Source: a virus
Lineage: Duplodnaviria; Caudoviricetes
Direction: 5' to 3' (one strand)
DNA length: 64,000 bases
IMG/VR virus record: IMGVR_UViG_3300028887_000079
Location: 67,712 to 131,711 of that record
Under the pieces are notes generated by a model. It did not search any database. It was given only the letters and a program-made list of their open reading frames with translations, and was not told where the DNA came from. Of the stretch, positions 735-64,000 are shown one piece after another (the first letter of the stretch is position 1; each line of letters opens with the position of its first letter). The translations under genes and the position numbers were made by a program.

Positions 735-1424
735 TTAGTTCGACACATTCTTGTCCATCAAGGCGAATGCTTCGGCGCGTGCAGCGTCATTCTCCGTGAA
801 GATGCCACGCACACAGCTGGTAGTCGTCTTGGAAGTCTGTTCGGAAGCGCCTCGCATAGAGACACAGGAATGGATCCCGCTAATGCGAACAGCAACGGCA
901 ACGGCGCCGAGCTTTTCCATAATGGCGTCCGCGATGTTTGCCTGCCAGCCCTCCTGAAGATTCAGGCGGCGGCCATACATCTTGACCATACGGACAATCT
1001 TAGAAAGTCCGACCACCTTGTCCTTCGGGATGTAAGCAACATCCACGCGGCAATGCATTGCGGCAAGATGATGGACGCAGTTGGACCACGCATCGGTCGA
1101 AACAACCACAATTCCCTGCTCGTAAAGGGACGGGGTGGCTTTGGCATCAAAGTGGCGGTTTTCCGCATCGTCAGCCATATTCGGGCTGTTCACGGGGAAC
1201 ATCTTGTTCAAGAAGTCCGCAGGGTTAGTGCGATAACCTTCAGTCATTTCGGTCCACATCTTGCAAACGCGATGCGGAGTTTCTTTAAGGTTATCATCCA
1301 GTTCTTCATTCTCGGAGATGCCAAGCATCTTGCGAATGAGATGTTCTACCATCTTTTCGTCTTCGGCGTTAAAGATGTTTTTGGTGACGGACACCTGTTC
1401 GGTGATTTCATATTTGCGTTTCAA
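735..1424 (-). CDS. folE: GTP cyclohydrolase I
   Basis: ETPHRV, NCVHH, VVGLSKIVR, LQE and HSCVSMRG motifs; TTG start after AGGAG. Confidence 0.95.
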   Translation of the reverse strand: MKRKYEITEQVSVTKNIFNAEDEKMVEHLIRKMLGISENEELDDNLKETPHRVCKMWTEMTEGYRTNPADFLNKMFPVNSPNMADDAENRHFDAKATPSLYEQGIVVVSTDAWSNCVHHLAAMHCRVDVAYIPKDKVVGLSKIVRMVKMYGRRLNLQEGWQANIADAIMEKLGAVAVAVRISGIHSCVSMRGASEQTSKTTTSCVRGIFTENDAARAEAFALMDKNVSN

Positions 1425-1511
1425 AGGGAGTCTCCTATTGTAAGTATACAAATATACGAAAAGCGGCCCCTCCCGAAGGAGGAGCCGGCTCCATTTGAGT
1501 GATAGGAACTC

Positions 1512-2318
1512 TTACTTAGGCTTGACCGGCGAACTATTCCATTCATTCGAGTCAAATACCACGCTGTCCCTGGAAGGCGCCACAACCATCCAAAGAGAGG
1601 AGGACTCCTGATAACGGGACTGAGCAGGATCATGCGAAGGCCATTGCGTATACAAGGACTTCAGCCCCGGAACAATGGAAGCATCCACCGTGCCGTAATC
1701 GGACCCTACGCGCTGGCACACCGGCTTTCCGGTCTTTTGGGCGCGTTCAACCATTGCGGCGTAAATCTGTTTAAGATCGCCAATCTTACGGGACAAAAGA
1801 GTTTCATTGTCGTCCTCGTAAGTGCCAAGCGCCTTCGAGAGATTCTTGCGGTCAATCCAAGAACATTCGCGACCACCTGAATAATCCTTCGCATCCAAGA
1901 TGAGCGTTGCGAGGAAGCAATCGTCAAACGGAATGAAAGTTCCAGTCGGAGTTTCGGCAGCCTTCGGGGCATCGGAATAGGGCGCATCTGTCTTGGTATC
2001 GCGCTTCACGCCTTTGAGATCATAATAATACGGGCGACCCAAATCCTTGCACGCGGAAACATAAAGGCGGTGAAGTTCCGGGGAGACGCTGTAGACGTAA
2101 TACGGCTTACCGGGGACCTGTTCATAGCCAAGGCCATCCGTGTTGAGAAGCACATTGCGCAGGCCCATATAATGCGAATAGATGCCTTGAAGATCCTTGG
2201 CGTAAGCCTGGTTACCCGTGGCGGCGATGCGGCCGACAACTTCAAGGAGACCGGTCGGCTTACCGCCACGAATAAAGGTTGACGCCTCGTTTGTTTTGGA
2301 GACAAGATTGATTTTCAT
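1512..2318 (-). CDS. hypothetical, putative virion-internal protein; paralog of 2722..3588
   Basis: MKINLVSKTNEA N-terminus; first ~95 aa similar to 2722..3588. Confidence 0.7.
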   Translation of the reverse strand: MKINLVSKTNEASTFIRGGKPTGLLEVVGRIAATGNQAYAKDLQGIYSHYMGLRNVLLNTDGLGYEQVPGKPYYVYSVSPELHRLYVSACKDLGRPYYYDLKGVKRDTKTDAPYSDAPKAAETPTGTFIPFDDCFLATLILDAKDYSGGRECSWIDRKNLSKALGTYEDDNETLLSRKIGDLKQIYAAMVERAQKTGKPVCQRVGSDYGTVDASIVPGLKSLYTQWPSHDPAQSRYQESSSLWMVVAPSRDSVVFDSNEWNSSPVKPK

Positions 2319-2713
2319 TAGTCTTCTCCCAGCGCAATCAAAATGTTTGCGGCAGCGCTGTTGAAATGGCGTTCAAATCCAAGGGCACGTGAAGATTCAC
2401 GGAGCTGGTCGGCCACTAAGGTCACCGACTTTCCGCCATCCTTGCTCGGGGATTGTAGCTCACCATTGATGAATGCGTGAATCGCCTTTTCGGCCGCATA
2501 GCGCAAGGCATCGGAAACGGTTTGCGAATTGAATGGGGCGCCTACCAATGCAGTGCCGGTGTCCCTTGCGGCGCCGTTCTTATCAATAAGAGTCACTTCA
2601 AGAAGGATGTCTTCCGGGCGCTGCTCGTAATAAGCGGAAAAGCCGGAGTTGATTTCAAGGGAGCCGGAGTTGCCTTCACGGACATTCTTTTCAACAAGCT
2701 TGATCTTTGCCAT
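2318..2713 (-). CDS. hypothetical, MAKIKL-family
   Basis: Starts MAKIKLVEKNVREG after a GAGG RBS. Confidence 0.7.
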   Translation of the reverse strand: MAKIKLVEKNVREGNSGSLEINSGFSAYYEQRPEDILLEVTLIDKNGAARDTGTALVGAPFNSQTVSDALRYAAEKAIHAFINGELQSPSKDGGKSVTLVADQLRESSRALGFERHFNSAAANILIALGED

Positions 2714-2721
2714 AATGACCT

Positions 2722-3588
2722 CTATTTGTAATCCCAATCGGTGATACGCGGGTTGGCGGGGTAAGGTTCAACAAACTGGACCTCTTCATCCGTCTCATAC
2801 CCATCCTTATTCACAATCACGTATTCGCCATCGCGTTCGCCGGTCGGCTTGAGTTTCAAGCCGTTAAAGTATGCCTTGAATTCGTCCATCGTGGCATCCT
2901 CTTTATAATCCGGATCCCAACCAAGGCGGCGAACATAATACTCGGTGGACCAAACAATCGGACTCCAGCCCCACCCCTGATCGATCTTGTGCGAGAAGGT
3001 GAGTTTGATTTTCTCGCAAGACGGGGCAGCATCACGCGGTTTCAGTCGGTTGATGTAGCGGGATGCCTTGTCCATAACATCCTGAGCGGCACGGTTGTAG
3101 CGAATGTCAATATCAAAATTACTCACGCGCTGCTTAATGCGATTGTAGAAGTCCACGTCCTTCGGGCCGTTATCCAATGCACGGCTCAGCGCATCGAAAT
3201 ACGCGAAGGTCGCACTGGTATTGGCGGTATCGGGGAACGGGGGCAAATCGTATTTGTCGGCGCTCTTCTTCGGAGCAGCCGGAGCGGGAGTTTCGCCAGC
3301 CGGGGTTCTACCCAATTCTTTGCAGGCGGCGATGTAATCCTTCTTCAAATCGTCCGTGACCGCCAACGCAGGGAAAGACCCGGAGGTGTCGCGGACGATG
3401 CCGGTAGCATTACGCAATGTCGAATAGAGGACCTGAGGACGGGTGAAGAACTGGTGAAGATCCTTCCCGCGGCACTTTCCGCCATTCTTAATGATGAAAT
3501 CAACCACATCAAAAAGCTTGGTAGGGCGCCCGCCACGAATCAAGGCGGATGCTTCGCTCTTGCTTGACACTAAATGAATTTGCGGCAT
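2722..3588 (-). CDS. hypothetical, putative virion-internal protein
   Basis: MPQIHLVSSKSEA N-terminus; shares a domain with 1512..2318. Confidence 0.7.
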   Translation of the reverse strand: MPQIHLVSSKSEASALIRGGRPTKLFDVVDFIIKNGGKCRGKDLHQFFTRPQVLYSTLRNATGIVRDTSGSFPALAVTDDLKKDYIAACKELGRTPAGETPAPAAPKKSADKYDLPPFPDTANTSATFAYFDALSRALDNGPKDVDFYNRIKQRVSNFDIDIRYNRAAQDVMDKASRYINRLKPRDAAPSCEKIKLTFSHKIDQGWGWSPIVWSTEYYVRRLGWDPDYKEDATMDEFKAYFNGLKLKPTGERDGEYVIVNKDGYETDEEVQFVEPYPANPRITDWDYK

Positions 3589-8775: not shown

Positions 8776-9174
8776 TTACTTGATTGACGGACTGGTCAAT
8801 TCCCAAGGGAACTCAAACCACGCCTCGCTATCCTTATGCAATTCCGGGACGAACAGCCCGCAAAGATCCGGCTGGACTTTCGCGGTCTCCTTCGAGACAT
8901 CCGTGTAGAAAATCGGGTTATACTTTTGATAGTCAACCAACGTATTTCCGGTGTCACAAATATCGTCCACAATAAGGCAGCCTTCACGAGGCGCCGTCAA
9001 AAATTCAACCTTCAGCAGGTGCGAGAAAAGGACCGCAAGGCAGGCGCCACCGCGAGGGATGCCATACACCCCATTCACGAAGCGCTTAGTCTTCACAAGT
9101 TCCTTTGCCGCAGTGCCTGCCGAAAGGACAACATCTTCCCAAGTGCGATGGACAACTCTAGGCGTTTGCTTCAT
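8776..9174 (-). CDS. purine phosphoribosyltransferase (Gpt/XGPRT-like)
   Basis: GIPRGG, LIVDDICDTGNT (PRPP loop) and WFEFPWE; overlaps the end of queC. Confidence 0.88.
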   Translation of the reverse strand: MKQTPRVVHRTWEDVVLSAGTAAKELVKTKRFVNGVYGIPRGGACLAVLFSHLLKVEFLTAPREGCLIVDDICDTGNTLVDYQKYNPIFYTDVSKETAKVQPDLCGLFVPELHKDSEAWFEFPWELTSPSIK

Positions 9175-9865
9175 ATTCAATCGGATCCTTTGTTCCGTTT
9201 GCTTCAAAAGCAGCCTTGCGGTCAATGCAGGTGCCGCACGTGCCACAAGCCTTTTCGCCGCCCTTATAGCAGCTCCACGTCAATTCGTAAGGAACTTTCA
9301 GGCGCAAGCCCTCGGCGACCACGCCAGCCTTGTTCAGGTTGATGAGCGGGCGCCAAACGTGAATCTTTCCGTAAGTGCCGATCGAAATGGCGTTATCCAT
9401 AGCATCGGCGAAGGCGGGAGAACAATCAGCGTATGCCTGCCCGGCGGCATCATCCGCATGTGCGCCATACACAACCACGGCATCCTGACCGGGGAAGAGG
9501 GAATCGGCGTAAGCGGTAGCGATGGACAAAAGCAAGCCGTTGCGGAACGGGACGTAAGTGCCAACGCGGCCTTCACCATTTTCTGCGATCTGTTCGGCGT
9601 AGGACTTATCCGGAATTTCCGTCTTGGAATCCTTCATGAGCGAGCAAACATCGCCGGCATACTTCATCACGCAAGAAATGTCTTCTTCGATATGGCGGAC
9701 GCCATAATGTTCGGCGACCTTGCGAGCGCATTCAAGTTCCTTGTCGTGGCGCTGCCCGTAATAGAGCGTGGCGGTGACAACATTTTCCTTGCCATACTTT
9801 TCAATGGCGAGGGCAACACAGGTGGTAGAATCGACTCCACCGGAATTCAAAACCAATGCCTTCAT
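9158..9865 (-). CDS. queC: 7-cyano-7-deazaguanine synthase
   Basis: SGGVDS, VPFRN, YADCS and TWSCY..CGTCGTC motifs. Confidence 0.96.
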   Translation of the reverse strand: MKALVLNSGGVDSTTCVALAIEKYGKENVVTATLYYGQRHDKELECARKVAEHYGVRHIEEDISCVMKYAGDVCSLMKDSKTEIPDKSYAEQIAENGEGRVGTYVPFRNGLLLSIATAYADSLFPGQDAVVVYGAHADDAAGQAYADCSPAFADAMDNAISIGTYGKIHVWRPLINLNKAGVVAEGLRLKVPYELTWSCYKGGEKACGTCGTCIDRKAAFEANGTKDPIEYEANA

Positions 9866-34210: not shown

Positions 34211-35230
34211 TTAGCGAGGAACGCGGTTGAAACTAATAAGGGTAACTCCGTTCGGATGGCGAGCTTCAACTGCCGCCTTCAAAGTGCGGACCAGCGCGAT
34301 CCCGCGCATAGAGGTCGCAAACACCGCGGAGACCGGCTGAGGATAACCGACCGGCCAGTAGGAAACGAGATACGCTTCTTCATCATCGCGAAGTTCGTCT
34401 TCCGGCTTCGATACCTCAACAGCAACTTCTACGTGGTCCACTTCAGGTTCCGGTCTTTCCTTCAACTGGCATTCATCCGCCGGCGCCAGCTGACAGCCCA
34501 AAATTCCTTCGCGGCGGAGGTATTCAAGTTTCTTGTGCGCGTGCGCAAAATCCCAATTACATTCCATAAGGACTTTGCGACATGTGCCAACGCCGATACC
34601 GGTCTTATTGGACAAGGTGCGGACCATTTCATGACGGGCACGGAATTCTTCACGGCTTGCCTGCTTAGGCGCAAGCGCTGCGGCATCCACTTCCATCTTC
34701 GGGCGTTCAACGCGGGCATCGCGTTCGCTTTGAATAGGAATGTTGGCACAAGCCTTCTTCGGCTTGTCCGGATCGACCGCCGGTTCGCTGCCACAATCGC
34801 GAGTCCAAGTCACAGTGTTCTTTGCGGTCTCGCTTGCCTTCAAACGCTCGAGGGTCAAACCCAGCTGTGCGGTGTCGAACGCGACCTGCAAATCGTTTGC
34901 CCAAGTTCCGACCATCCATTCGAGGGTCGGGTTGGCATCAACGATGTGGAGGCGGGTGGTTTCATAGTCCGACATCAAAGCAGGAGCAAGCGGATCCGCT
35001 GCATTGAAGCAGGCGCCGTGATCCCACGCTTCATCAAGGACGCCCTTGACAATCTCCTTCAACTTCTTGAAGTCAACAATCATTCCGTCCTTGTTAAGAC
35101 TGCGGTGTTTGGAAGTCACCGTAATTTCGACCTCGTAGCGATGGCCGTGCAAATGACGGCACTTCTGCGCATAGGAGGTGACGAGCCGATGCGCAATCTC
35201 AAGTTCCGTGTAGGTTGTTAATTCAAGCAT
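34211..35230 (-). CDS. queD: 6-carboxytetrahydropterin synthase with long C-terminal extension
   Basis: AHRL..C..LHGHRY, GMIVDF, DH, NPTLE and ET motifs in aa 1-142. Confidence 0.92.
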   Translation of the reverse strand: MLELTTYTELEIAHRLVTSYAQKCRHLHGHRYEVEITVTSKHRSLNKDGMIVDFKKLKEIVKGVLDEAWDHGACFNAADPLAPALMSDYETTRLHIVDANPTLEWMVGTWANDLQVAFDTAQLGLTLERLKASETAKNTVTWTRDCGSEPAVDPDKPKKACANIPIQSERDARVERPKMEVDAAALAPKQASREEFRARHEMVRTLSNKTGIGVGTCRKVLMECNWDFAHAHKKLEYLRREGILGCQLAPADECQLKERPEPEVDHVEVAVEVSKPEDELRDDEEAYLVSYWPVGYPQPVSAVFATSMRGIALVRTLKAAVEARHPNGVTLISFNRVPR

Positions 35231-44586: not shown

Positions 44587-46302
44587 TTAAGCGTATTCCT
44601 CAATGGCGCCGTTGAGCAATGTAAGGACCTCGCCAAGTTCGGAATCGCCCAATTCCCAAAATTCGGGCTTGAACTTGATATCCACATACCAATACGGCTT
44701 TCCGTTCTCCATCTCGGACACGATGTTGTATTCAACATAGTCGTCAAAATCGGACAGCGCCTTCTTGGCTTCCGTTTCGCAATCGCCCTTATCGCCGCAA
44801 CCCATATCAAGGTCAAAGCCCTTATCGTGCAGGTCCTTCGCGGATCTTCCGATAACGGAATTGAAGACATAAAGGCCTTTGAGGTAGTTGTCCACGCGCG
44901 AGAGTTTGCTGCGCAGCGCCAGCTTCGGGCTCAGCGCTTCGCGCCTGCCTTTTTTGTCCGCCTTCAACATTTCAGCCACAATGTCCGACAATTCGCTGAA
45001 GACATAGTTGGCGTCCTTGTCATTCAATTCCAAGATGGCGTCCTTGAATTTCAAGGCAGGGAACCACATGTCCTCGCCCTTCGGACCGCCTTCCGGGATG
45101 AGGGTCGGAGAGTAGTCAACGTAATCATCAAAGTCGGCAAACTTTGCGGCGGACTCCTTTTTGGCTTCTTCTTCGGTATTGTATCCCACAGGGATTGCCA
45201 TATGAGAATCGAAGACGTCCTCAAAATCCGGACCCCATTTTTGGAAGCCGGTATGCTTGTCGAACAGTTTGCCGAGTTCACCGATTCGGGTGGTGCGCTG
45301 CATCATCGGCTTGGCAGCATCCGGTGCTTCGCCGCATACCCCGCGATAAATGGCATCGGAAATCTTTGTGAAGGCATCCTTCGCTTCGGCGGAGTCAAGT
45401 TCAAAAATGGTTGGCTTGAACTTGATAACTGGAGACCAAACCGGTTCGCCGTGAGGTCCGCCCATTTCATCAAACTCAACATTGTAGTCAAGGTATTTCT
45501 TCAAGCCGCCGAAAAGATCGTCCGCATACTTTTGGGCATCTTTTTCCGTGGGCATCCCATAGACGGGAACCATATATGGGTCTTGAACGCTAGCGGTGTT
45601 GAAGTCCGAGAATGCCATCCCGATTTCTTTGAAGCCGCGAAGGTTTGCACAGAGGTTGTCGTATTCCTTGATCTTTTCTTTTGCCTTGGCACGCTGCGCT
45701 AATTTCGGGCTGAGACCTGCTTCGGACGTTTTCCCTTCGCCAAAGTATTCCGCTTCCGGCCAAGAGGTTTCGCTGTCGCCGTTGGACACCTTTGCGATGC
45801 CATCGATGAGGTCAATCTCGTTGCGGATGCGATCTTCAACATCGGACAACGTATCGGTGTTAGTGATGACAAAGTCAAACACGAATTGGTGGACGCGCCC
45901 GTCAGTAGCCTTGGGCCTGCCTTCGCTCTTGGTCTTGCTTTCGGCAAAGTAGCCATCTTTCAGCACATCGCCGAGATCCGCAAGGAGTCCGGTTTTAGCG
46001 TTGGTCGAAAGGCGATTGAACAGCGGCTTGAATTTGATTTGGGCAACCCTGAAGTCGGGTTCGCTTTCATCGGGCTTGATGTAGCGGCCTTCAACGAAGT
46101 CGGCAAAAGGTCCGAAGGTGTCGGCAATGTATTTGTCCCACCCGGCATCCGTATTGTCTTCGGCGCCAGTCATGAGCCCAATCCATTCGCCCGTTTCAAT
46201 GCTGTTGGCAAGGTCGGCGGTGTCGCCGCCGCTGATTTCATTCCACACCGGATTCTTTGCAAGGAGTCCGGAAAGGATGCTTTCATTTTTAGGGGTTTTC
46301 AT
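44587..46302 (-). CDS. multi-domain putative internal virion protein with 4 homologous domains
   Basis: Repeated F..F.DYV.Y...IKFKP..EL; K-x-E linkers. Confidence 0.7.
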   Translation of the reverse strand: MKTPKNESILSGLLAKNPVWNEISGGDTADLANSIETGEWIGLMTGAEDNTDAGWDKYIADTFGPFADFVEGRYIKPDESEPDFRVAQIKFKPLFNRLSTNAKTGLLADLGDVLKDGYFAESKTKSEGRPKATDGRVHQFVFDFVITNTDTLSDVEDRIRNEIDLIDGIAKVSNGDSETSWPEAEYFGEGKTSEAGLSPKLAQRAKAKEKIKEYDNLCANLRGFKEIGMAFSDFNTASVQDPYMVPVYGMPTEKDAQKYADDLFGGLKKYLDYNVEFDEMGGPHGEPVWSPVIKFKPTIFELDSAEAKDAFTKISDAIYRGVCGEAPDAAKPMMQRTTRIGELGKLFDKHTGFQKWGPDFEDVFDSHMAIPVGYNTEEEAKKESAAKFADFDDYVDYSPTLIPEGGPKGEDMWFPALKFKDAILELNDKDANYVFSELSDIVAEMLKADKKGRREALSPKLALRSKLSRVDNYLKGLYVFNSVIGRSAKDLHDKGFDLDMGCGDKGDCETEAKKALSDFDDYVEYNIVSEMENGKPYWYVDIKFKPEFWELGDSELGEVLTLLNGAIEEYA

Positions 46303-46316
46303 TTTGAGGTCTCCTT

Positions 46317-47294
46317 TTACATTTCGTGAAGCGCATCGCGAATGTGCTCAAGCAGGTCCGCTTCAATTTCGTTTCGGATGCCAGCGGCATCGTCATAGTC
46401 CGACATTGTGTTGTCTTCGATTTCATCAGTATCGGACCACCACTGAGTAAATTCGCCACCACAGAAAGTATAGCGAATTAACGGCTCGCGGTCAACGAGG
46501 AGTTCCACCGAGGAGGTGGGAATGTCCAGCCCGGGCGAATCAAAAGTGGTGATGAGACGCGTTTTGGTGCGGCGGCGATCGCGCCCATCAAAATAGGTGT
46601 CCAACATATTGTCGAGCGCCTTTTGAAAGTCGACCGCGTCCTTGTCCGCATCTTGGTTCGGGCTGATTTTATTGATAGGTTGTCCGGGGTGTCGTTTCAT
46701 ACCTTCGTTTTCTCCGTCCGGATCTTTATTCCAAGCGGATGTCACATCCAACACTTCAACGCCGGGGAAGGCTTGCGGGACCAATTCCCTGACCATATTG
46801 AGGAAAAACTTTTTCGCATTTTCATCGCTGTGGTCTTTGTAATAGGCGTCAATCAAATTGTCCATCTTCTTGGCGCCTGCTTTCAATTCCGGATGAACGT
46901 GTGCGAGCGCATCCCCGAGGACATGGGCAACGTGGATAACATCAATTCCACCAACGCGAAGAATCGGCTGCTCCTTCCCATTTAATTTGTAATGGAGGTT
47001 AAGTCGGCGCATCGAGTTGTAGTAGCGATGATACCAATAGTCGCCCGCGTGCTTGGCGAGAATATCGCCAGCCCCTTCGGACTTGCCTTTTGCAAGGTAG
47101 TCCTTGACGGCGGCAATGCAGTCCGGGCAAATGTCGGCGTTGTCCGCATAGCCTTTTTCTTTCAGGTATGCTTTCACATCCGGTTCGAGTTCATCGAGAT
47201 AGAATGTTTGGCGCCAGCCCTTGCCGCAATTCTTGCAGCGGCCAAGATGCGTTCTTTTGGCGCCTTCATTTTTGATGAGTTTGATTTTCGCCAT
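46317..47294 (-). CDS. MAKIKL-family multi-domain protein
   Basis: MAKIKLIKNEG; CxxC..CxxC domain; KSEG and ENEG linkers. Confidence 0.75.
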   Translation of the reverse strand: MAKIKLIKNEGAKRTHLGRCKNCGKGWRQTFYLDELEPDVKAYLKEKGYADNADICPDCIAAVKDYLAKGKSEGAGDILAKHAGDYWYHRYYNSMRRLNLHYKLNGKEQPILRVGGIDVIHVAHVLGDALAHVHPELKAGAKKMDNLIDAYYKDHSDENAKKFFLNMVRELVPQAFPGVEVLDVTSAWNKDPDGENEGMKRHPGQPINKISPNQDADKDAVDFQKALDNMLDTYFDGRDRRRTKTRLITTFDSPGLDIPTSSVELLVDREPLIRYTFCGGEFTQWWSDTDEIEDNTMSDYDDAAGIRNEIEADLLEHIRDALHEM

Positions 47295-47306
47295 AAGGAG
47301 CGCCCT

Positions 47307-47681
47307 CTACTTTTTGCTTTCAAGTCCGGCGCTGTTGCCCGTAATACCGGGAGCGCTGCCGCCGAGGTTCTTCAAAAAGTCTTGGCACCACACAATCGCC
47401 TTTTCGCAAGGATCAACGCTTGCGGTGAAGAAGCGACCGACCGGCCAAAACTGAATGATTTCGCCGCCGAGGAAATGTCTTCCGGCATCGTCCTTTGCGC
47501 TGCCCATCGGATGCCCATACGCCTCTTCGGATATGGCGTCCGCGAGTGCGATGGCATTTTCCGGCGTGCCGCAATCAATCATAAACGATTCTGTGTAGCG
47601 GTCGCCGCTGTTGCGGGTAACGGCACCGATTGATTCATTTTTGGGAGCGCTTTCACGGCGCTGCAATTTGATTCTAGCCAT
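47307..47681 (-). CDS. MAKIKL-family protein
   Basis: MARIKLQRRESAPKNES. Confidence 0.75.
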   Translation of the reverse strand: MARIKLQRRESAPKNESIGAVTRNSGDRYTESFMIDCGTPENAIALADAISEEAYGHPMGSAKDDAGRHFLGGEIIQFWPVGRFFTASVDPCEKAIVWCQDFLKNLGGSAPGITGNSAGLESKK

Positions 47682-47982
47682 TTGAAATCTCCGTGTTGAT
47701 AGTAAAGTCTTTGAGGTCCGATCCAAATTCGCGCAAGAGCCAACGCAGGTCGGAAGGCTTGACCCTTTCATCAAACACATAGATGTCAAGGTCATTGCCC
47801 GTTGTATTGTTGGACCAGTCCGATTGGACTTCGCCCATCATAAAGTGGTTGTCGAAGTCGTCCACAATTCCGTTCGCGTCCGCATCGTCAATGCCTTTGA
47901 GCGTAAAGACGGACATGATGTGGTAGGCTTCGTTTTTCGGCTTGGCGCCTTCATTCTTTTTTGTGAGTTTGATCTTAGCCAT
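47674..47982 (-). CDS. MAKIKL-family protein
   Basis: MAKIKLTKKNEGAKPKNEA. Confidence 0.75.
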   Translation of the reverse strand: MAKIKLTKKNEGAKPKNEAYHIMSVFTLKGIDDADANGIVDDFDNHFMMGEVQSDWSNNTTGNDLDIYVFDERVKPSDLRWLLREFGSDLKDFTINTEISNG

Positions 47983-47992
47983 CATAACCTCC

Positions 47993-48646
47993 TTATGCGC
48001 TCGCAATCATGACAAGCGCTTCTGCCGGATCCATATCTGCGAGTTCTTCGTATTCATGTGCGGCGCCGAAGAAGGTTCCGCTCATCAACGTCACCGGGTT
48101 TGCAAAACCGGAATGCAGCGCAATGACCTTGAATTGGCCGCTGCCCGGCACCTTCGTAATCTTCACAATCGCCTGAACATCGGAATCGTCCGGATGGATG
48201 ACAAAGTGGTCAATGTAATTGGGGTCGTCAACCGTGAAGCGGTCAATCGCATCCTTGTCGAATGCTTCTGCCTTCCCGGACTCATTTGCCCCAATCTCGT
48301 AAACACGGATATCGGAAAAAGTATTCCAGCCGTCAACAAGATAGGACATTGAGGTGATTTTGTCGATGCCATTATCGCGCTTGAACGTTTCAAGCGTGAT
48401 GCCATCATCAAACACTTCTCCGTAGCGGTATTCGCGATCGTTCACGCAAATGCTTTGTTCGTAGTCGTCACTTGCCGCTGCCTTGACTTCATCCCAAATT
48501 TGCTGCTCCGGCGTTTTCCCGGATTCAGGATCTACCGACCATTCTTCGATGATGGTGCCAGCATCGTCCATACGCCCACCTTTAACAGTGTATGCGCGAA
48601 TGGCGGTGCTTGCCTCATTCTTTTTTGCCAGTTTAATCTTCGCCAT
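47993..48646 (-). CDS. MAKIKL-family protein
   Basis: MAKIKLAKKNEAS. Confidence 0.75.
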   Translation of the reverse strand: MAKIKLAKKNEASTAIRAYTVKGGRMDDAGTIIEEWSVDPESGKTPEQQIWDEVKAAASDDYEQSICVNDREYRYGEVFDDGITLETFKRDNGIDKITSMSYLVDGWNTFSDIRVYEIGANESGKAEAFDKDAIDRFTVDDPNYIDHFVIHPDDSDVQAIVKITKVPGSGQFKVIALHSGFANPVTLMSGTFFGAAHEYEELADMDPAEALVMIASA

Positions 48647-48657
48647 TTGAATACCTC

Positions 48658-49815
48658 TTAATGAGAAAGTTTGCGGCCGTCCTCATCCTCCTCAACGGTG
48701 GACGAGAAATCCTTGCTCGGGTTTTTCTTTTTCTTTTTGGCTTCGGATTTCATCGAGGCGTTTTCGCCAGCCTCGGCAAGGTCGGAACCGAGTTGGGCAA
48801 TGTGGGCGCCAAGTTCAGCCCAAGTCTTACAACGGGTCTTGGATCCGCGAACGCAGGTGCGCAATTCGTATGTGAGCTGCTCAATGCCGTTGATGGCATC
48901 TTCCAGCCCTTCAACATCTTCCCATCCGTCCCAACCTTCAAAGCCGCTTTCGCGCTTCTTGGATTCCTTGAGCGAATAGCCAAGTTCACGGAGGACCTTG
49001 CCCACGCAAACCTTCTCGGTTTCGGTGGCATCGGTTTCGCCGGACTCACCATTCACGGACACCTTATAAATGTCCGGGCTTGTGTTGCCCTGCCAGTCGT
49101 CATCAACCTCAATGTATTCAACATTGACCGGAAATTCCTTTCCGTCCTTGATGCCGATGTAGGCTTCGGAGTATTCGGGGTGCTTGCTTACGTTGCGGCC
49201 TTTGAGCAATTCATAGGCGTAGTAGCAATCCTTGACCGAATACGGGTCGCTGTAAGACAAATAGTCGGTGGTGTTGGTGTTGCCGCGATCCCACTTGAGC
49301 CCTTCTTCTTTCACAAGGAACTTAATCTTGTCCGCAAGGAATTGCTTGACGCGTGCATCGGACATTCCATCCCAAAGGTTATAGACGGTGCGGCCGCTAT
49401 CGCCACCCCAATGGGCGTTGTCGATTTCAAGGTAAATTTTGTTGTCCTTGAGAATCGGGGTGGCGAACTTCCAGTAGCCACGCATACGCGGGGAGTTTTC
49501 CCAATAGCCGTCACTCATTTGTCCGAATACGGAATCAATCATGTCCTTGAATTTGGCGTCAAGGCCGAGATCGACCAAATGCGTGTTTTCGGATTCGGTT
49601 TTTGATTCAGCCGGAACCAGCGTTTTCAATTCCTTCGCGATGCGGGTCATTTCGGTTTCATCGCCCGCTTCGGCGGCATCTTCCCAATCGCCAACGAGCG
49701 CACGCACCTTCTTGCGGAAAGCCGCGTCCTTGTTGGCAAGTCCCATAATGTTATGGACATCGCCATAATCAATTTCACCCGAGATTTGGGCAATATCTTC
49801 CAGCTTCGATTCCAT
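48658..49815 (-). CDS. multi-domain putative internal virion protein
   Basis: Linkers ESKTESE, ESKKRES and MKSEA. Confidence 0.7.
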   Translation of the reverse strand: MESKLEDIAQISGEIDYGDVHNIMGLANKDAAFRKKVRALVGDWEDAAEAGDETEMTRIAKELKTLVPAESKTESENTHLVDLGLDAKFKDMIDSVFGQMSDGYWENSPRMRGYWKFATPILKDNKIYLEIDNAHWGGDSGRTVYNLWDGMSDARVKQFLADKIKFLVKEEGLKWDRGNTNTTDYLSYSDPYSVKDCYYAYELLKGRNVSKHPEYSEAYIGIKDGKEFPVNVEYIEVDDDWQGNTSPDIYKVSVNGESGETDATETEKVCVGKVLRELGYSLKESKKRESGFEGWDGWEDVEGLEDAINGIEQLTYELRTCVRGSKTRCKTWAELGAHIAQLGSDLAEAGENASMKSEAKKKKKNPSKDFSSTVEEDEDGRKLSH

Positions 49816-58927: not shown

Positions 58928-59674
58928 TTAGCTCGGAAGTTGTCCGTGGAGCGGGCGGACTTTTCTTGCGGTGAGCTGCGGACGTTCGTTGCCCGGTCGC
59001 TTGTTGGTTATGCAGGCCACCAGCTCTTCCTTCGTTTTGAATCCGTCAATGTGCTCGCCATCAGTCCCATCATACAGATTCCACGGCTTGTCCGGGCTGT
59101 AATCGCTTTCGTCCGAATCATCAAACTGAATCGTGTAGATGGCATCGCCCTTCTGTGCGATCAGCAATTCCTCAAAGCGGTTTTCGAAATCGATGGTCCA
59201 GCCTTGCTTCATAAGCATATCGGCGAGGAGCTCGTAACCTTCAGGGTTGACCATCCCATAGTGGGGAATGACCTCGCGCTGCTTCGCTTCGGATTCGCTG
59301 TTGATGGCGCGGGTAAGCATCGATTCGATTATGTCCATAAGATCCGGTCTTCCGCACATTTCGTGTTCGATTATGGTCTTGCCATCCGGGGTCATGCGCA
59401 TGACCTTGTAGTCGCCGGTCGGAGTTGCGCTTGCGAACTTCACATCCACCACGGCGCCGATCTTTCCAGTGGTTCCGTTATGGGCGCCGATACGGAATGT
59501 ATCGTAGCAATGCGTTTCGTCATTCAGGAGCAGGCTGACGGCGCAGTCATATCCGAGATCCTCAACGATCTTAGCAATCTCGGGGTAGAGGTTTTTTTCG
59601 AGATTGTCGAAATCTTTGAGGCGGTCTTGAAGTTCGCGCCTTTGAGATTTCAAATCAAAAAGAATACTTGCCAT
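58928..59674 (-). CDS. hypothetical protein
   Basis: GAGG RBS; SESEA linker. Confidence 0.65.
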   Translation of the reverse strand: MASILFDLKSQRRELQDRLKDFDNLEKNLYPEIAKIVEDLGYDCAVSLLLNDETHCYDTFRIGAHNGTTGKIGAVVDVKFASATPTGDYKVMRMTPDGKTIIEHEMCGRPDLMDIIESMLTRAINSESEAKQREVIPHYGMVNPEGYELLADMLMKQGWTIDFENRFEELLIAQKGDAIYTIQFDDSDESDYSPDKPWNLYDGTDGEHIDGFKTKEELVACITNKRPGNERPQLTARKVRPLHGQLPS

Positions 59675-59678
59675 TTCA

Positions 59679-60887
59679 TTACCTCAGGTCTTCAGGTTGA
59701 TAGCCAAATTGGGCAGCGATGTGCGCCAGCACTGCACGCGTAACGATCTTGCGTTCCGGGGCATTGAGCTTGTTGTCCGTAACGTCCGGATCCGTGTTCG
59801 CAATGTGGTTTCCGGCATAGGTGGAAAGGGCGGTGATTTCGTGGAGAGCCTTATCGAGTTGACCATCCTTCTGCAGTTTATCAAGAACCTTGCGCACCTC
59901 CTTCATAGTGATGCGGTTCAGGACTGCCTCGGACTTGCGTTCGTCCGCAACGCGGCGAGCGGCCTCGACTGGGCCGACCCCATCGTTCCAGCAATCATCA
60001 ATCATCGCCGGATTCATGTTAATCAGGCGGTCCGCCTCGTCCCCGGATTTGCCCATATCCTTTGTGAGGGCAGTCCAAATATCAAGGCAATAAGTGCGAA
60101 GATCCCCGCCCTCGTTGAGGCCTTCGCCCTTGCGATTGCTCCAAACGACTTCGCTTTCGGTGTGGCCGTTTTCTTTCCAAAGAGCAACGATGTGGTAGAG
60201 ACCTTTCGGGTTTTCGCCCAAAGCCTTTTCAAGGGCGGAAATAACCTCCTTGTCGGATCCGGATGCGATATCATCCAGCTCATCCCCGTCCTTGTCAATT
60301 TCATAGAGGGTATAGTAGTCAACCGTGGAGTGGCGGTCCATAGAACCGGGCTCCTTGATTTTCTTTGGAATCTTTGCTTCGGATGTGCCTTCCAGCTTGG
60401 CAATCGCATTTTCGATTGTCTTAGGCGTAAGACGGATTGTGAAGGAGCAGGTCGGGCGACCCCAAGAAGAGGATTCTCCGCCCTTATCCCACTTGCCGTC
60501 ATATTCCTTTTCAATGACCTTGCCTTTCAGCTTGACCGATTTGCCGTTGTGGCGCACAGTGAAGGAAACCGTATCGCCTTCCCAAATGCCGGATTTGTCG
60601 GAGCACACCTTTTCCTTGTGGGTATGCCAGTTGGGGTTTCTCGGATCTTCGCTGCCGCCGAAACCAATCGTGGCGCCATCCGTGATAGTGACTTCTTCGG
60701 GCACACCATCATAGCGGGCGTATACACAATTTTCGTTGCGCGTCTGCGCACGCTTGAGCGAATCCAATCCAGGGAAAACATCCCAACCGCCAAACCATTC
60801 CTCGTATTCACCATCGGGAAGTCTTCCCAACCTATCGAGGTCCTTGGCGGCATCTTCGTTCTTTTCAACAAAACTCAATCTCGGCAT
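59679..60887 (-). CDS. multi-domain putative internal virion protein
   Basis: MPRLSFVEKNED; linkers TSEA, LNEG and RKSEA. Confidence 0.7.
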   Translation of the reverse strand: MPRLSFVEKNEDAAKDLDRLGRLPDGEYEEWFGGWDVFPGLDSLKRAQTRNENCVYARYDGVPEEVTITDGATIGFGGSEDPRNPNWHTHKEKVCSDKSGIWEGDTVSFTVRHNGKSVKLKGKVIEKEYDGKWDKGGESSSWGRPTCSFTIRLTPKTIENAIAKLEGTSEAKIPKKIKEPGSMDRHSTVDYYTLYEIDKDGDELDDIASGSDKEVISALEKALGENPKGLYHIVALWKENGHTESEVVWSNRKGEGLNEGGDLRTYCLDIWTALTKDMGKSGDEADRLINMNPAMIDDCWNDGVGPVEAARRVADERKSEAVLNRITMKEVRKVLDKLQKDGQLDKALHEITALSTYAGNHIANTDPDVTDNKLNAPERKIVTRAVLAHIAAQFGYQPEDLR

Positions 60888-60922
60888 AAAATCCTCTTTC
60901 GACTTAAATATACGGACAAGTC

Positions 60923-62557
60923 CTATCCGCCATACTTGGCGTAAAGGTCGCTGTAGTTCCTGATGATGCCCCAGTAGGTTTCATCATCCAGCCCGGCGTC
61001 CATTGCGGCGGCCTGCGAATCCATCAGCATGTTGTATTTGCCGCCCATTTGAACCTTGCGGTATGCGGCAAATTCGTCCGCCGTGATTTCATCGGCGCTC
61101 TTCGGATTCAACTTTTCATTCTTCTCGACAACGGAGAAGAGGGGTGTGCCGTGGATCTCGGCATCCGGGTTTTCCATAAAGAAAGCAGTCAGTGCGTTCT
61201 TCTTTGCGGTTTCTTTGTCCGGCCCAACGCCATAGGCGATTGTTTCCTTGCCGGAGTATTCGGGGTCAAATTCGTCAAGATACTGGATCTTGGCGGAGAC
61301 CTTCATTTCCCAACCGCCGTTATCCAAGGCAATTTGAAGCGTTTCGTCAAGGGATGCAAACTCGTCCGTGAAAATCTTTTCGAGTTCATCGAGATCCTTG
61401 AAGTTCAATTCCGCAACGACTTCGGAAGTGCCATCCTTGAGATTGTCCGCATAGCGGCCAATTACGCCGACATCCGGAAGAATGCGCCAAGACACGCCGC
61501 ACAATTCCCCGTCCATTGTTTTGGGGTAAACATCAATGCCGCTGTGCTTGGGGTCATCGTTGATGTCCAGCTTGAAGAGTTTAGTTCCGGCGGCGGACCA
61601 AGCAGCATTCACTGCGCCTTTGATTTCGGAGTTGTTCATAGCATCCTCTTTGATGGAGGCGCCTGCCGTAATCCTCTTTTGAAGACTGCGGAACGCGCCG
61701 GTAAGCAGTTGTTCAAGATCTTTGAGCGATTCCACGCCCATGCACGAAGTAGCGTTCTTCGCATTGTGGGTCGGGTAGTGGTCGACTTCGATTTTCTTCA
61801 GGCTATTGAGGACCGGATGCGGGAAATTGATTTCCCACTTATCGTCAACCTCATCGTGCCCGTTCAAGCCCTTGGTGTAGATAATGACGTGGCCGCCCAA
61901 GCGGACAATGTCCAATTCAAAATCCTTGGCGCCACTTGCATTCCAAGCAGCGCGTGCGGTGTTTTGAATATCTCGCGGGGTCAAGGGTTCAAGCGATGCC
62001 TCGTTCTTGTTTTCAAATTTCTCGATAGCCATAACTTCAAGATCCTCAACTTCGGCGCCGATGCTGTCGGCGAAGTTTTGTTTCATAGCAGCGCTGAAAC
62101 TTTCAGGGCCGGAACCTTCATACGCATCTTCGATATGCGTGGTCCAGTCACCAGCCTTGTTTTTGCAATAGGTGGTATCGTTTGGGCCTTTATGGGCAAG
62201 CACATAGGTCATTTCGGCTTCCCGTGTTTCGGGCTTGCGGCCGAGATCGTCCATAATCCATTTGGCAACCGCCGTGACGGACGCTTCGCCCTTCGTGGCA
62301 TCGCCAGTAATGCTCTTGCGGCGAACGCCGGGGAAAAAGATCCGCCAAGTGTCGCCGTCAAGGACTATATTGTATTTCGGCCGAGAATCGCGTTCTAAGG
62401 CGATTTCGAGGCCCGGCAATGTATTTGCCTGCCCCACATAAAAATCGGGCTTAGAACGCACGGAAACCGCCAAATCCGGCGCCATACGCTGGATGAGGCG
62501 TTTCAATTCTTCTACCAAGTCGATTTCTTGGACCGAACCTTCCCGTTTACTTCCCAT
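60923..62557 (-). CDS. multi-domain putative internal virion protein
   Basis: MGSKREG; linkers TREA, KNEA, IKED and EKNEK; duplicated AAW..G...F.LDI domain. Confidence 0.7.
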   Translation of the reverse strand: MGSKREGSVQEIDLVEELKRLIQRMAPDLAVSVRSKPDFYVGQANTLPGLEIALERDSRPKYNIVLDGDTWRIFFPGVRRKSITGDATKGEASVTAVAKWIMDDLGRKPETREAEMTYVLAHKGPNDTTYCKNKAGDWTTHIEDAYEGSGPESFSAAMKQNFADSIGAEVEDLEVMAIEKFENKNEASLEPLTPRDIQNTARAAWNASGAKDFELDIVRLGGHVIIYTKGLNGHDEVDDKWEINFPHPVLNSLKKIEVDHYPTHNAKNATSCMGVESLKDLEQLLTGAFRSLQKRITAGASIKEDAMNNSEIKGAVNAAWSAAGTKLFKLDINDDPKHSGIDVYPKTMDGELCGVSWRILPDVGVIGRYADNLKDGTSEVVAELNFKDLDELEKIFTDEFASLDETLQIALDNGGWEMKVSAKIQYLDEFDPEYSGKETIAYGVGPDKETAKKNALTAFFMENPDAEIHGTPLFSVVEKNEKLNPKSADEITADEFAAYRKVQMGGKYNMLMDSQAAAMDAGLDDETYWGIIRNYSDLYAKYGG

Positions 62558-62567
62558 TTGCTTACCC

Positions 62568-63443
62568 TTAGATGTCCGTCATGCCCTGCTTGGCAACATC
62601 CAAACCGGCATTGTTTCCGGTGTCGGTCTGCGGCATCACAGCACGGCTCGGGGCGTTCTTAATCGGCTTGTTTGAGGTAGCCATAATGCCCGCGTTACCC
62701 AAGATGGAGTTGCGCACCGCATTCTTGCTGACTGGGGAGTTGTAGTAGTCCTGATAAACATCGACCATCTTGTCCGTGATGTTCTTGTCAAGGTAATCCT
62801 TGAGTTTGTCATCGCCGTCTTTCAGCCAGTCGAAAATGTTCATGCCCGGTTCAACCTTGCTGGACGGAACCTTACCGCCGTTGGCAACCGCGATAGCGCC
62901 CTGGAAGTCACGGAGCATATCCGCCGGATCCTGAGGATTATCGCCAGCCGAATTCTTGAACACGATGGAATTGATCTTGCAGTTCGGGTTGAGCAGGAAT
63001 ACCTGCGACCAGCGGTGGTGGCCGTCAACGATGTAATGCGTGCCGTTGTAGTCATAGACCACGAGCGGGAGGTTGATGGTGACCGGGCCGTCGGCAAGAA
63101 TCTTCTTCTGCTGTTCGGGGTCTTTGGGGTTAACCTGATAGGACAGCGATTTGCCCACATCGATTTCGTTCTGTGTGGGGTGCAGGTCCTTGGCGGCGAT
63201 AGGTTCTTCGGTCCATTTCATCTTGTCAGCGAGAGTGCCGTTGCCGAAACCAAGTTCGAGCAGGTCAAGCTGATCCGGCGTCAAGTTGTTGAGCGCGTTG
63301 ACGAGATCCGGCATATCCTTTTGATTTTTGAGTGTTTGGACTTCTTTGTCGAATTGCGGCTTCTGTGCGGAGGCATCAGGCTGCTGACTCACCTCTTCTT
63401 CTTCGTTCCGCTTTTTCGCTTCGAATCTTTTTTTGATGAACAT
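62568..63443 (-). CDS. ParB/Srx-like domain protein
   Basis: DLHPTQNEID and YIVDGHHRW motifs; N-terminus KKRNE. Confidence 0.75.
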   Translation of the reverse strand: MFIKKRFEAKKRNEEEEVSQQPDASAQKPQFDKEVQTLKNQKDMPDLVNALNNLTPDQLDLLELGFGNGTLADKMKWTEEPIAAKDLHPTQNEIDVGKSLSYQVNPKDPEQQKKILADGPVTINLPLVVYDYNGTHYIVDGHHRWSQVFLLNPNCKINSIVFKNSAGDNPQDPADMLRDFQGAIAVANGGKVPSSKVEPGMNIFDWLKDGDDKLKDYLDKNITDKMVDVYQDYYNSPVSKNAVRNSILGNAGIMATSNKPIKNAPSRAVMPQTDTGNNAGLDVAKQGMTDI

Positions 63444-63461
63444 GGGTATTACTCCTTTTGG

Positions 63462-64000
63462 TTAATTCTTGTCGGCGTAGTTTTTCATACGCGCTAAATG
63501 CTGCTCGGCGGCATCCTTCTTTGCGAAAGAGGCGAGGATGCGCCCATCGGTGTGGCTACGAATCACCCACGGAGCATCCTCGCCCTTCGAGTTCTTGTGG
63601 CCTTTTTCATATTCCAGCTTTTCGTAAGACGATTCGGACTTTTCATTAAATTCGCATGAGGTCCAGTTTGTGGCGGTGAAATGGTCGCGGATATACTGCT
63701 TCGGATCTTCCGAAATTTCAGTGCTCCAAATCACATCGTATCCGTTGCCGGACCACTTCCCGGTGCGACCGGTATTTTTATACTTGTATACCTGCATCAG
63801 GGTTTTGCCATCGAACACAAAGTTATTGGAACTGCCACGGACGCGTGCGCCGCCATCACCGAGGGTATCGTATGCGGCTTTCCAAGTAGGATACACGCCA
63901 TCCTTGCTCACCGAACCATTTTCCGGATCCATAGAATACACGGTATATTCGGTAGATTCGGACTTACGCTTCGATTCATCACCCGCCGGGTCAAATCCGG
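63462..64000 (-). CDS. multi-domain protein, start lies beyond window end
   Basis: Frame is open to the window end (..DESKRKSESTEY..); EKSES linker. Confidence 0.7.
   Translation of the reverse strand, partial: GFDPAGDESKRKSESTEYTVYSMDPENGSVSKDGVYPTWKAAYDTLGDGGARVRGSSNNFVFDGKTLMQVYKYKNTGRTGKWSGNGYDVIWSTEISEDPKQYIRDHFTATNWTSCEFNEKSESSYEKLEYEKGHKNSKGEDAPWVIRSHTDGRILASFAKKDAAEQHLARMKNYADKN

Follow-up and report, generated by a model that had tools for sequence, protein, structure and literature searches.

The 64,000-nucleotide stretch analyzed here, referred to as the window, is the final 64 kb of the 131,711-bp contig of an uncultured phage (IMG/VR record IMGVR_UViG_3300028887_000079, positions 67,712 to 131,711), and it carries two clusters of genes for putative capsid-cargo proteins, located at 58928-64000 (cluster 1, five genes) and 44587-49815 (cluster 2, six genes). 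The proteins of these clusters are chains of small modules, which are shuffled among related phages exactly at short linkers ending in a glutamate, and these linkers reproduce the end of the N-terminal tags. With moderate confidence, we read these genes as encoding capsid-cargo polyproteins, which the head protease would cut into separate small proteins within the capsid.

Module borders and a shared glutamate-ended signal

The linkers follow the consensus E-S-K-x(1-3)-E over 5-9 residues, with Lys, Arg or Thr at P3, Asn, Ser, Lys or Arg at P2, and Glu at P1 followed by a small residue. All motifs listed in the preliminary description of this DNA are present where it placed them, each at a located Glu codon: ESKTKSE127/G, KTSE194/A and RRE455/A in the 571-aa protein, ESKKRE289/S in the 385-aa protein, RKSE320/A in the 402-aa protein, ENKNE186/A in the 544-aa protein, and ESKRKSE371/S and EKSE479/S in the 535-aa protein (the slash marks the border after the Glu). 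A strict form of the motif was defined as an internal [KR][NSRKT]E followed by Ala, Ser or Gly, and its expected frequency was derived from 2000 composition-preserving shuffles of each protein. In the 11 cluster proteins, a set that like the motif was picked after the data had been seen, 12 strict sites are observed against 2.03 +/- 1.43 expected, a count reached in 0 of the 2000 shuffles, whereas the other 156 proteins of the genome stay at chance level (15 observed, 14.8 expected). The effect is large and is reproduced in the relatives, where 65 occurrences of E[SA]K-x(1-4)-E compare with 15.9 +/- 3.8 expected; within the cluster proteins, ESK-x(1-4)-E occurs five times against 0.41 expected. 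Three proteins carry three strict sites each, all of them from these two clusters.

About 140 relatives, nearly all from metagenome assemblies, were gathered through word-indexed and exhaustive protein searches, together with six related phage loci. The loci were found only by an alignment-based scan, four single-protein scans of IMG/VR being empty, and no close public relative was recovered by a megablast of the region against GenBank phages or by a tblastn search with the 544-aa protein. The relatives match the query proteins in parts only, and the homology breakpoints, against relatives and related loci alike, coincide with the motif Glu. For the 544-aa protein compared with 140 relatives, the starts and ends of phmmer matches cluster at residues 101-120, 171-190, 301-310, 401-420 and 471-490; elsewhere, breakpoints fall at E11, E170, E255 and E259, and E320 (402 aa), at E371 and E479 (535 aa, where the relatives' matches start at residues 362-372 and 475-482), and at E129 and E134 (248 aa). 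In the 385-aa protein, the relatives' matches span residues 211-290 and 276-359, which places a break at E289, and the ESKTE261/G site of the 535-aa protein was located by its motif alone, with no match boundary at that point. Cargo proteins contain two to six modules, and the same modules appear in many orders among the relatives. The subdivision into segments of roughly 60-130 residues proposed earlier thus stands as far as the modular strings are concerned, although the sizes spread a little more widely, from 56 to 160 residues.

Individual modules illustrate this mobility. Within the 544-aa protein, the fourth module (M4) also exists as a standalone 118-aa protein, and the sixth (M6; window 60923-61114) is a widespread standalone protein of 55-80 aa with more than 70 representative clusters at 50% identity, covered by no Pfam family, which has been fused into cargo proteins here and in the relatives P0034, P0059 and P0062. 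The first module of the 248-aa protein stands alone in one related phage (L004, 123 aa) and lies upstream of M4 in P0054, while its second module is the C-terminal module of P0024 and P0046; the middle module of the 325-aa protein (79-199) recurs in P0004, between ESKDGRQNE/Y and DPDGISE/G. A pair of near-identical genes from loci L005 and L006 is distinguished by one module, inserted in L006 exactly between KESKTEE/ and KSEAAKSE/. The inserted module is that of the 217-aa protein (preceded by KESKTEE/S and followed by KSEAAKSE/T), and it is missing from the L005 gene. Module shuffling across relatives, anticipated in the preliminary description, is therefore observed, with modules swapped as cassettes exactly at the motif. 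Separately, the 571-aa protein contains four copies of one domain of about 65 aa (FDDY..GGP.GE.W....FKP), indicating that tandem duplication inside a gene is a further way in which modules multiply.

The internal motif and the tag end behave as a single signal, as had been proposed: modules begin at the same residue whether they follow a tag or a linker. Two tag types, exemplified by MAKIKLxKKNE and (M-Y-I-K-K-x-Y)-E-A/S-K-K-x-E, are matched by 16 proteins of the genome and by 13 different tags in the relatives. The last module of the 402-aa protein, which we call the NRITM module, is internal here (ERKSE320/AVLNRITM) and is a separate gene in four related phages, where it directly follows the tag: MRKLNLVEKNE/AVLNRITM (L003), MAAVIRVYE/AVINRITM (L004), MPKIKMVE/ATALNRITM (L006) and MPKIKMIEAARPEEPWERKSE/SALNRITM (L008). 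In P0017 and P0061, other modules precede it and it is once more internal. For the module that opens the 571-aa protein, the sequence reads MKTPKNE7/SILSG here and ...GLESKGIKNE/SILSG in relatives P0006-P0013, in which another module has been fused upstream; that upstream module is the separate 124-aa gene of this phage, which ends in ...GLESKK. E7 is invariant in 14 of 14 aligned homologues, whether N-terminal or internal. Past the conserved DGYFA end of the same module, five different downstream modules follow in relatives, always over linkers of 6-9 residues that end in Glu plus a small residue. Across 137 non-redundant contexts in relatives, Glu occupies position -1 of the projected module start in 51 (background Glu frequency 0.08, p 1.6e-21) and lies within -3 to -1 in 98 (p 1.4e-34). 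In six fused open reading frames (ORFs), an entire tag with its Met persists at an internal position. The internal consensus E-S-K-x-x-E looks like the second tag type in its C-terminal half; the linkers thus retain the would-be processing half without the hydrophobic, basic N-terminal half. A further tag flavor, MAMxI[KR]V.E.., is found in the distant relative L004 (IMGVR_UViG_3300031760_007527), for example in MAMNIKVHGSKKSE and MTMKIKVDEAKVHE.

Structural models of two proteins were generated with AlphaFold from alignments, and their domain boundaries were compared with the motif positions. In the 544-aa model (mean pLDDT 73.8), the six junction Glu residues lie in the segments 1-7, 111-128, 178-188, 301-303, 417-430 and 477-488, all with pLDDT below 50; in the 571-aa model (mean pLDDT 72.2), E7, E127, E194 and E455 lie in the equally low-scoring segments 1-7, 117-147, 166-201 and 450-458. 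In both models, every junction Glu is devoid of secondary structure and sits between confidently folded units. The junction motifs are thus predicted to separate independently folding units, and the contrary outcome envisaged in the preliminary description, motifs buried inside folded domains, was not encountered at the junctions. One strict match of the 571-aa protein, KKE383/S, falls inside a confident predicted helix, away from any homology border, and in P0001, which is 96% identical, Ala takes the place of its Glu. The match is most readily explained by chance and serves as an internal negative control, and it indicates that a strict match need not be a junction. A Foldseek search of the 544-aa model against the PDB yielded only matches of low TM score (Mediator, polo-box), which were not used.

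Proposed processing in the head and competing explanations

Under the proposed mechanism, each protein would be carried into the prohead core by its N-terminal tag, a short basic sequence of either the MAKIKLxKKNE or the MYIKKxYEAKKNE type, which would act like the T4 capsid-targeting sequence. The protein itself would be a chain of small, independently folding modules on linkers that repeat only the processing half of the tag. Cleavage after Glu by a gp21-family protease would then detach the tag and open every linker, so that the head would contain separate proteins of 55-160 residues for injection along with the DNA. Because an identical signal frames every module, any in-frame joining at a linker would give a loadable and cuttable product, which would explain the cassette-like shuffling. 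Packaging, cutting, injection and the roles of the modules are what we infer from the observations above.

The gp21-like protease that the preliminary description called upon is present in the genome. The gene at the start of the window encodes a protein that matches phrog_207, head maturation protease (E 4.7e-19), and in tblastn it matches the 'prohead core scaffolding and protease' genes of T4-like Rhizobium phages (E 1e-26, 44.7% identity) as well as 50 Synechococcus phage records. Membership in the gp21 family (MEROPS S77) is assigned because the Rhizobium phage homologue matches PF03420 Peptidase_S77, the T4 gp21 family (E 1.7e-8). A genome-wide PF03420 search was empty, and since the controls were silent too, it is uninformative. 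Sequence comparison of the protease and of the ParB-like protein described below with solved structures gave no match. The neighboring 565-aa capsid protein matches PF07068 Gp23 (E 7.5e-6, 26.0 bits against a cut-off of 24.4 bits) and, as read from its sequence, carries a candidate site KRYE65/S ahead of the conserved core, at a position like that of the Glu65 site of T4. Between the protease and capsid genes, a 150-aa scaffold-like protein rich in Lys, Glu and Ala bears a tag and two strict sites, a pattern expected for a scaffold broken down by cutting. Enzymes of the gp21 type cut after Glu (PMC9026906).

Several observations weigh against the polyprotein reading. P3 is mostly Lys, Arg or Thr (KNE, KSE, RRE, TRE) rather than following the T4 L/I-x-E rule, so that only the P1 Glu is common to both and the specificity of the protease in this phage is one that we infer. 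The phage's own protease has no direct match to PF03420. Several multi-module proteins have short or atypical N-termini (MKTPKNE, MESKLE, MGSKRE, MASILFDL), which may be insufficient for targeting, and some borders are weak in the motif (IKE304/D, GWE417/M). Furthermore, the multiple cuts known from T4 gp22, phiKZ and SPN3US destroy propeptides and release no folded products (PMC9026906, PMC10052503).

The serious rival, which we regard as the less probable but by no means negligible account, is that these proteins are intact multi-domain cargo, head-loaded or otherwise virion-associated, from which at most the N-terminal tag is removed, the linkers being relic tags of past fusions or flexible charged spacers. 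The fused ORFs in which an entire tag survives internally show that fusion of tagged genes does create junctions; linkers rich in Lys, Glu and Ser are common in multi-domain proteins; and delivery without cutting is known for several polyvalent proteins and for the virion RNA polymerase of phage N4 (PMC5512222). Relics, however, would be expected to decay, whereas in many independent contexts the junction Glu keeps a fixed position, where it is either invariant or strongly enriched, small residues follow it as they do in the tags, and modules duplicated in tandem within one protein each retain the site. The motif also stays at chance level in the other multi-domain proteins of this phage.

It is improbable that the signal is unrelated to the capsid and instead serves a different process or is recognized, in the cytoplasm or after delivery, by a protease of the host or by another one of the phage. 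Some of the proteins lack a full tag, and polyvalent proteins have been proposed to be processed after injection (PMC5512222). Against this, the clusters lie among late structural genes, between the terminase and the tail/baseplate genes, in all related loci; the scaffold-like and capsid proteins bear the same signal; and gp21-family proteases characteristically cut after Glu (PMC9026906). More doubtful still is the view that the motif is mainly a recombination joint, in which a conserved DNA word at the borders promotes cassette exchange and the peptide is incidental. Modules are indeed exchanged, inserted and deleted exactly at the motif, and the short word TCC GAA GC occurs at several junctions; nevertheless, the junction codons vary (AGC or TCC for Ser, AAA or AAG, GAA or GAG, with P3 and P2 differing), shared identity does not exceed about 8 nt, and conservation is seen at the amino-acid level, matching the tag ends. 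Differing codons at the junctions point to selection on the peptide rather than to DNA microhomology. Finally, chance matches in proteins rich in Lys and Glu are a scarcely credible explanation. The motif is admittedly degenerate and short, and the 571-aa protein has in E383 a strict match that is clearly no junction; nevertheless, the shuffles exclude chance (2.0 versus 12 observed; 15.9 versus 65 in relatives), which also sits poorly with the coincidence of the matches with homology breakpoints and low-pLDDT linkers.

As for the functions of the modules, the preliminary description had spoken of anti-host domains, a suggestion that finds almost no support. Pfam and PHROGs searches returned no family in 10 cluster proteins or in five relatives of 864-1086 aa, apart from a match of the 291-aa protein to PF08857 ParBc_2 (E 2.7e-4; 21.5 bits, below the cut-off of 23.6 bits); the same searches revealed no embedded peptidase in the cluster proteins or the large relatives, and Atlas look-ups gave no function for the modules. 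The only grounds for an anti-host role would be the parallel to polyvalent proteins, P1 Dar, and IPI and Alt of T4 (PMC5512222), together with this weak ParB-like domain. In L005, L006 and L008, other modules precede the ParB-like domain in a fusion that retains an entire tag, MAKIHMTHKRRE/D, internally.

Gene layout and individual putative cargo proteins

The contig ends share an overlap of 160 nt (window 63841-64000 versus contig 1-160; identity 158/160), and although IMG/VR calls the record 'linear', the genome is probably complete and either circular or circularly permuted. The two mismatches alter two residues of the protein that wraps around the ends (S/F and D/A), which suggests population variants. 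This protein, of 535 aa once rebuilt across the ends, starts with MYFKKRFEAKNDSE. The junction contexts of the 544-aa protein past its N-terminus are TRE113/A, ENKNE186/A, IKE304/D, GWE417/M and KNE481/K; coordinates of all cargo genes and of the head protease gene are collected in Table 1.

Table 1. Window positions of the head protease gene and the cargo genes, with tags, modules and junctions (Glu codon positions in brackets)
Feature	Position	Strand	Tag and modules	Junctions
Head maturation protease, N-terminal 235 of 356 aa	1..707 (whole gene contig 67348-68418)	minus	phrog_207	
571-aa cargo protein	44587..46302	minus	Short tag MKTPKNE7/S	ESKTKSE127/G (45922-45924), GKTSE194/A (45721-45723), KGRRE455/A (44938-44940)
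325-aa cargo protein	46317..47294	minus	Tag MAKIKLIKNE10/G	KGKSE73/G (47076-47078), DGENE197/G (46704-46706)
124-aa cargo protein	47307..47681	minus	Single module; tag MARIKLQRRE/SAPKNE/S; C-terminal tail ...GLESKK	
Second-cluster gene	47674..48006	minus	Internal Met and tag MAKIKLTKKNE	
217-aa cargo protein	47993..48646	minus	Tag MAKIKLAKKNE11/A	
385-aa cargo protein	48658..49815	minus	Starts MESKLE6/D	AESKTE74/SE76/N, KESKKRE289/S (48949-48951), MKSE358/A (48742-48744)
248-aa protein	58928..59674	minus	Two modules, 1-129 and 135-248; no tag-like N-terminus	NSESE129/AKQRE134/V (59288-59290 and 59273-59275)
402-aa cargo protein	59679..60887	minus	Tag MPRLSFVEKNE11/D; modules 12-170, 171-255, 260-320, 321-402	E11 (60855-60857), E170 (60378-60380), E255 (60123-60125), E259 (60111-60113), E320 (59928-59930)
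544-aa cargo protein	60923..62557	minus	Six modules: M1 7-113, M2 114-186, M3 187-304, M4 305-417, M5 418-481, M6 482-544	E6 (62540-62542), E113 (62219-62221), E186 (62000-62002), E304 (61646-61648), E417 (61307-61309), E481 (61115-61117)
291-aa protein	62568..63443	minus	Type-2 tag MFIKKRFEAKKRNE14/E, then one ParB-like nuclease-type domain	E14 (63402-63404)
535-aa cargo protein, C-terminal 178 aa	63462..64000	minus	Continues at contig start, ORF rebuilt across contig ends; tag MYFKKRFEAKNDSE14/	ESKTE261/G, ESKRKSE371/S (63957-63959), NEKSE479/S (63633-63635)

All genes of both clusters lie on the minus strand. Long plus-strand ORFs opposite the cargo genes (e.g. 59697-60944) were rejected as shadow frames, being non-coding by a codon model trained on the operon. 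Read-through joining the 291-aa and 544-aa genes, the only pair checked, was likewise discarded, as their 10-nt gap puts them in different frames; the gap between the 325-aa and 571-aa genes is 14 nt. The starts of the longest ORFs at 47307-47795 and 47674-48006 are probably wrong, each ORF containing an internal Met followed by a canonical tag; with these internal starts the two genes abut, while the longest-ORF starts would make them overlap by 122 nt. The cargo cluster of the six related IMG/VR loci is flanked by a divergently transcribed terminase gene on one side and a conserved block of structural genes on the other, and its content varies from phage to phage while the flanks are conserved.

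Elsewhere in the window, at 735-1451, 9158-9865 and 34211-35230, scattered genes for a GTP cyclohydrolase (phrog_2197), a QueC-like protein (judged from its N-terminal MKALVLNSGGVDSTTC only) and a QueD-like PTPS (PF01242) fit a 7-deazaguanine DNA-modification pathway. The terminase large subunit has 609 aa here (contig 1317-3146) and 601-614 aa in L004-L007, compared with 1014 aa in L003 (5247-8291, minus strand), where it may carry an intein or another insertion.

Relation to known phage systems

A full-text literature search found no published description that combines a prohead protease with a cargo polyprotein. The polyprotein reading can be extended to a general cargo scheme of uncultured T4-like phages, for and against which we see an even balance: one tag would load a chain of mini-proteins, the protease would separate them at the linkers, the frame-neutral borders would form a plug-and-play array of injected effectors, and the protease would have moved from a Leu/Ile-x-Glu to a Lys-x-Glu rule. 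Should the linkers be cut, several different proteins would reach the host from a single gene at DNA entry, allowing compact carriage and quick re-sorting of early-acting factors. T4 targeting, with its one tag for each protein, would then be extended to a single tag for a whole polyprotein, and capsid targeting would be linked to the polyvalent-protein concept without an embedded peptidase. Dozens of orphan module families would likewise become likely injected proteins, worth testing against bacterial defense systems, and the linker would offer a natural, portable design rule for placing several foreign proteins in T4-type heads.

Three known systems bear comparison. The phages phiKZ, 201phi2-1 and SPN3US share with this phage a gp21-related protease that cuts after Glu, with several redundant sites per head protein (PMC10052503, PMC5694885, PMC9026906); tandem Glu sites such as KKNE/GAKPKNE/A occur here as well. 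In those phages, the cuts fall at A/S/G-x-E in long propeptides, which are destroyed and lost from the head, one mature C-terminal piece being retained, whereas here the pieces between the sites are folded, conserved and autonomous domains, as predicted from models and relatives, and P3 is basic rather than small. No homology of the phiKZ/SPN3US type was found, tblastn with the 544-aa protein being empty among 50,697 phage records.

Polyvalent proteins, which comprise 2-15 domains and are predicted to travel with the DNA and to separate into their domains (Iyer et al. 2017, PMC5512222), resemble the cargo proteins in being multi-domain, heavily shuffled and encoded beside virion genes, and a ParB-like domain is present in this cluster. 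They differ in containing recognizable enzyme domains and usually a peptidase of their own (zincin-like MPTase), in contrast to the small orphan modules described here, for which cutting in trans by the head protease is proposed. Their hallmarks (MPTase or another peptidase, ART, methylase, ArdA/ArdC) were not found in the cargo proteins by the Pfam and PHROGs searches, and the ParB-like match lies below its cut-off.

T4 offers the third parallel. Its capsid-targeting sequence consists of an N-terminal targeting part and a C-terminal processing part (PMC9026906), and in T4 IPI, IPII, IPIII and Alt, as in the proteins described here, a short Glu-ended N-terminal tag with these two halves is common to otherwise unrelated proteins (PMC9026906, PMC3012670). 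With Asp in place of the Glu at the T4 cut site, targeting persists but processing is blocked (PMC9026906). Both phages have a gp21-family head protease, a gp23-type capsid protein and cargo genes that vary between relatives. At P3, T4 uses Leu or Ile and this phage, known from its sequence alone, uses Lys, Arg or Thr. T4 cargo consists of single units with one N-terminal site, plus a C-terminal site in Alt, whereas the proteins described here join up to six modules and repeat the processing half of the tag.

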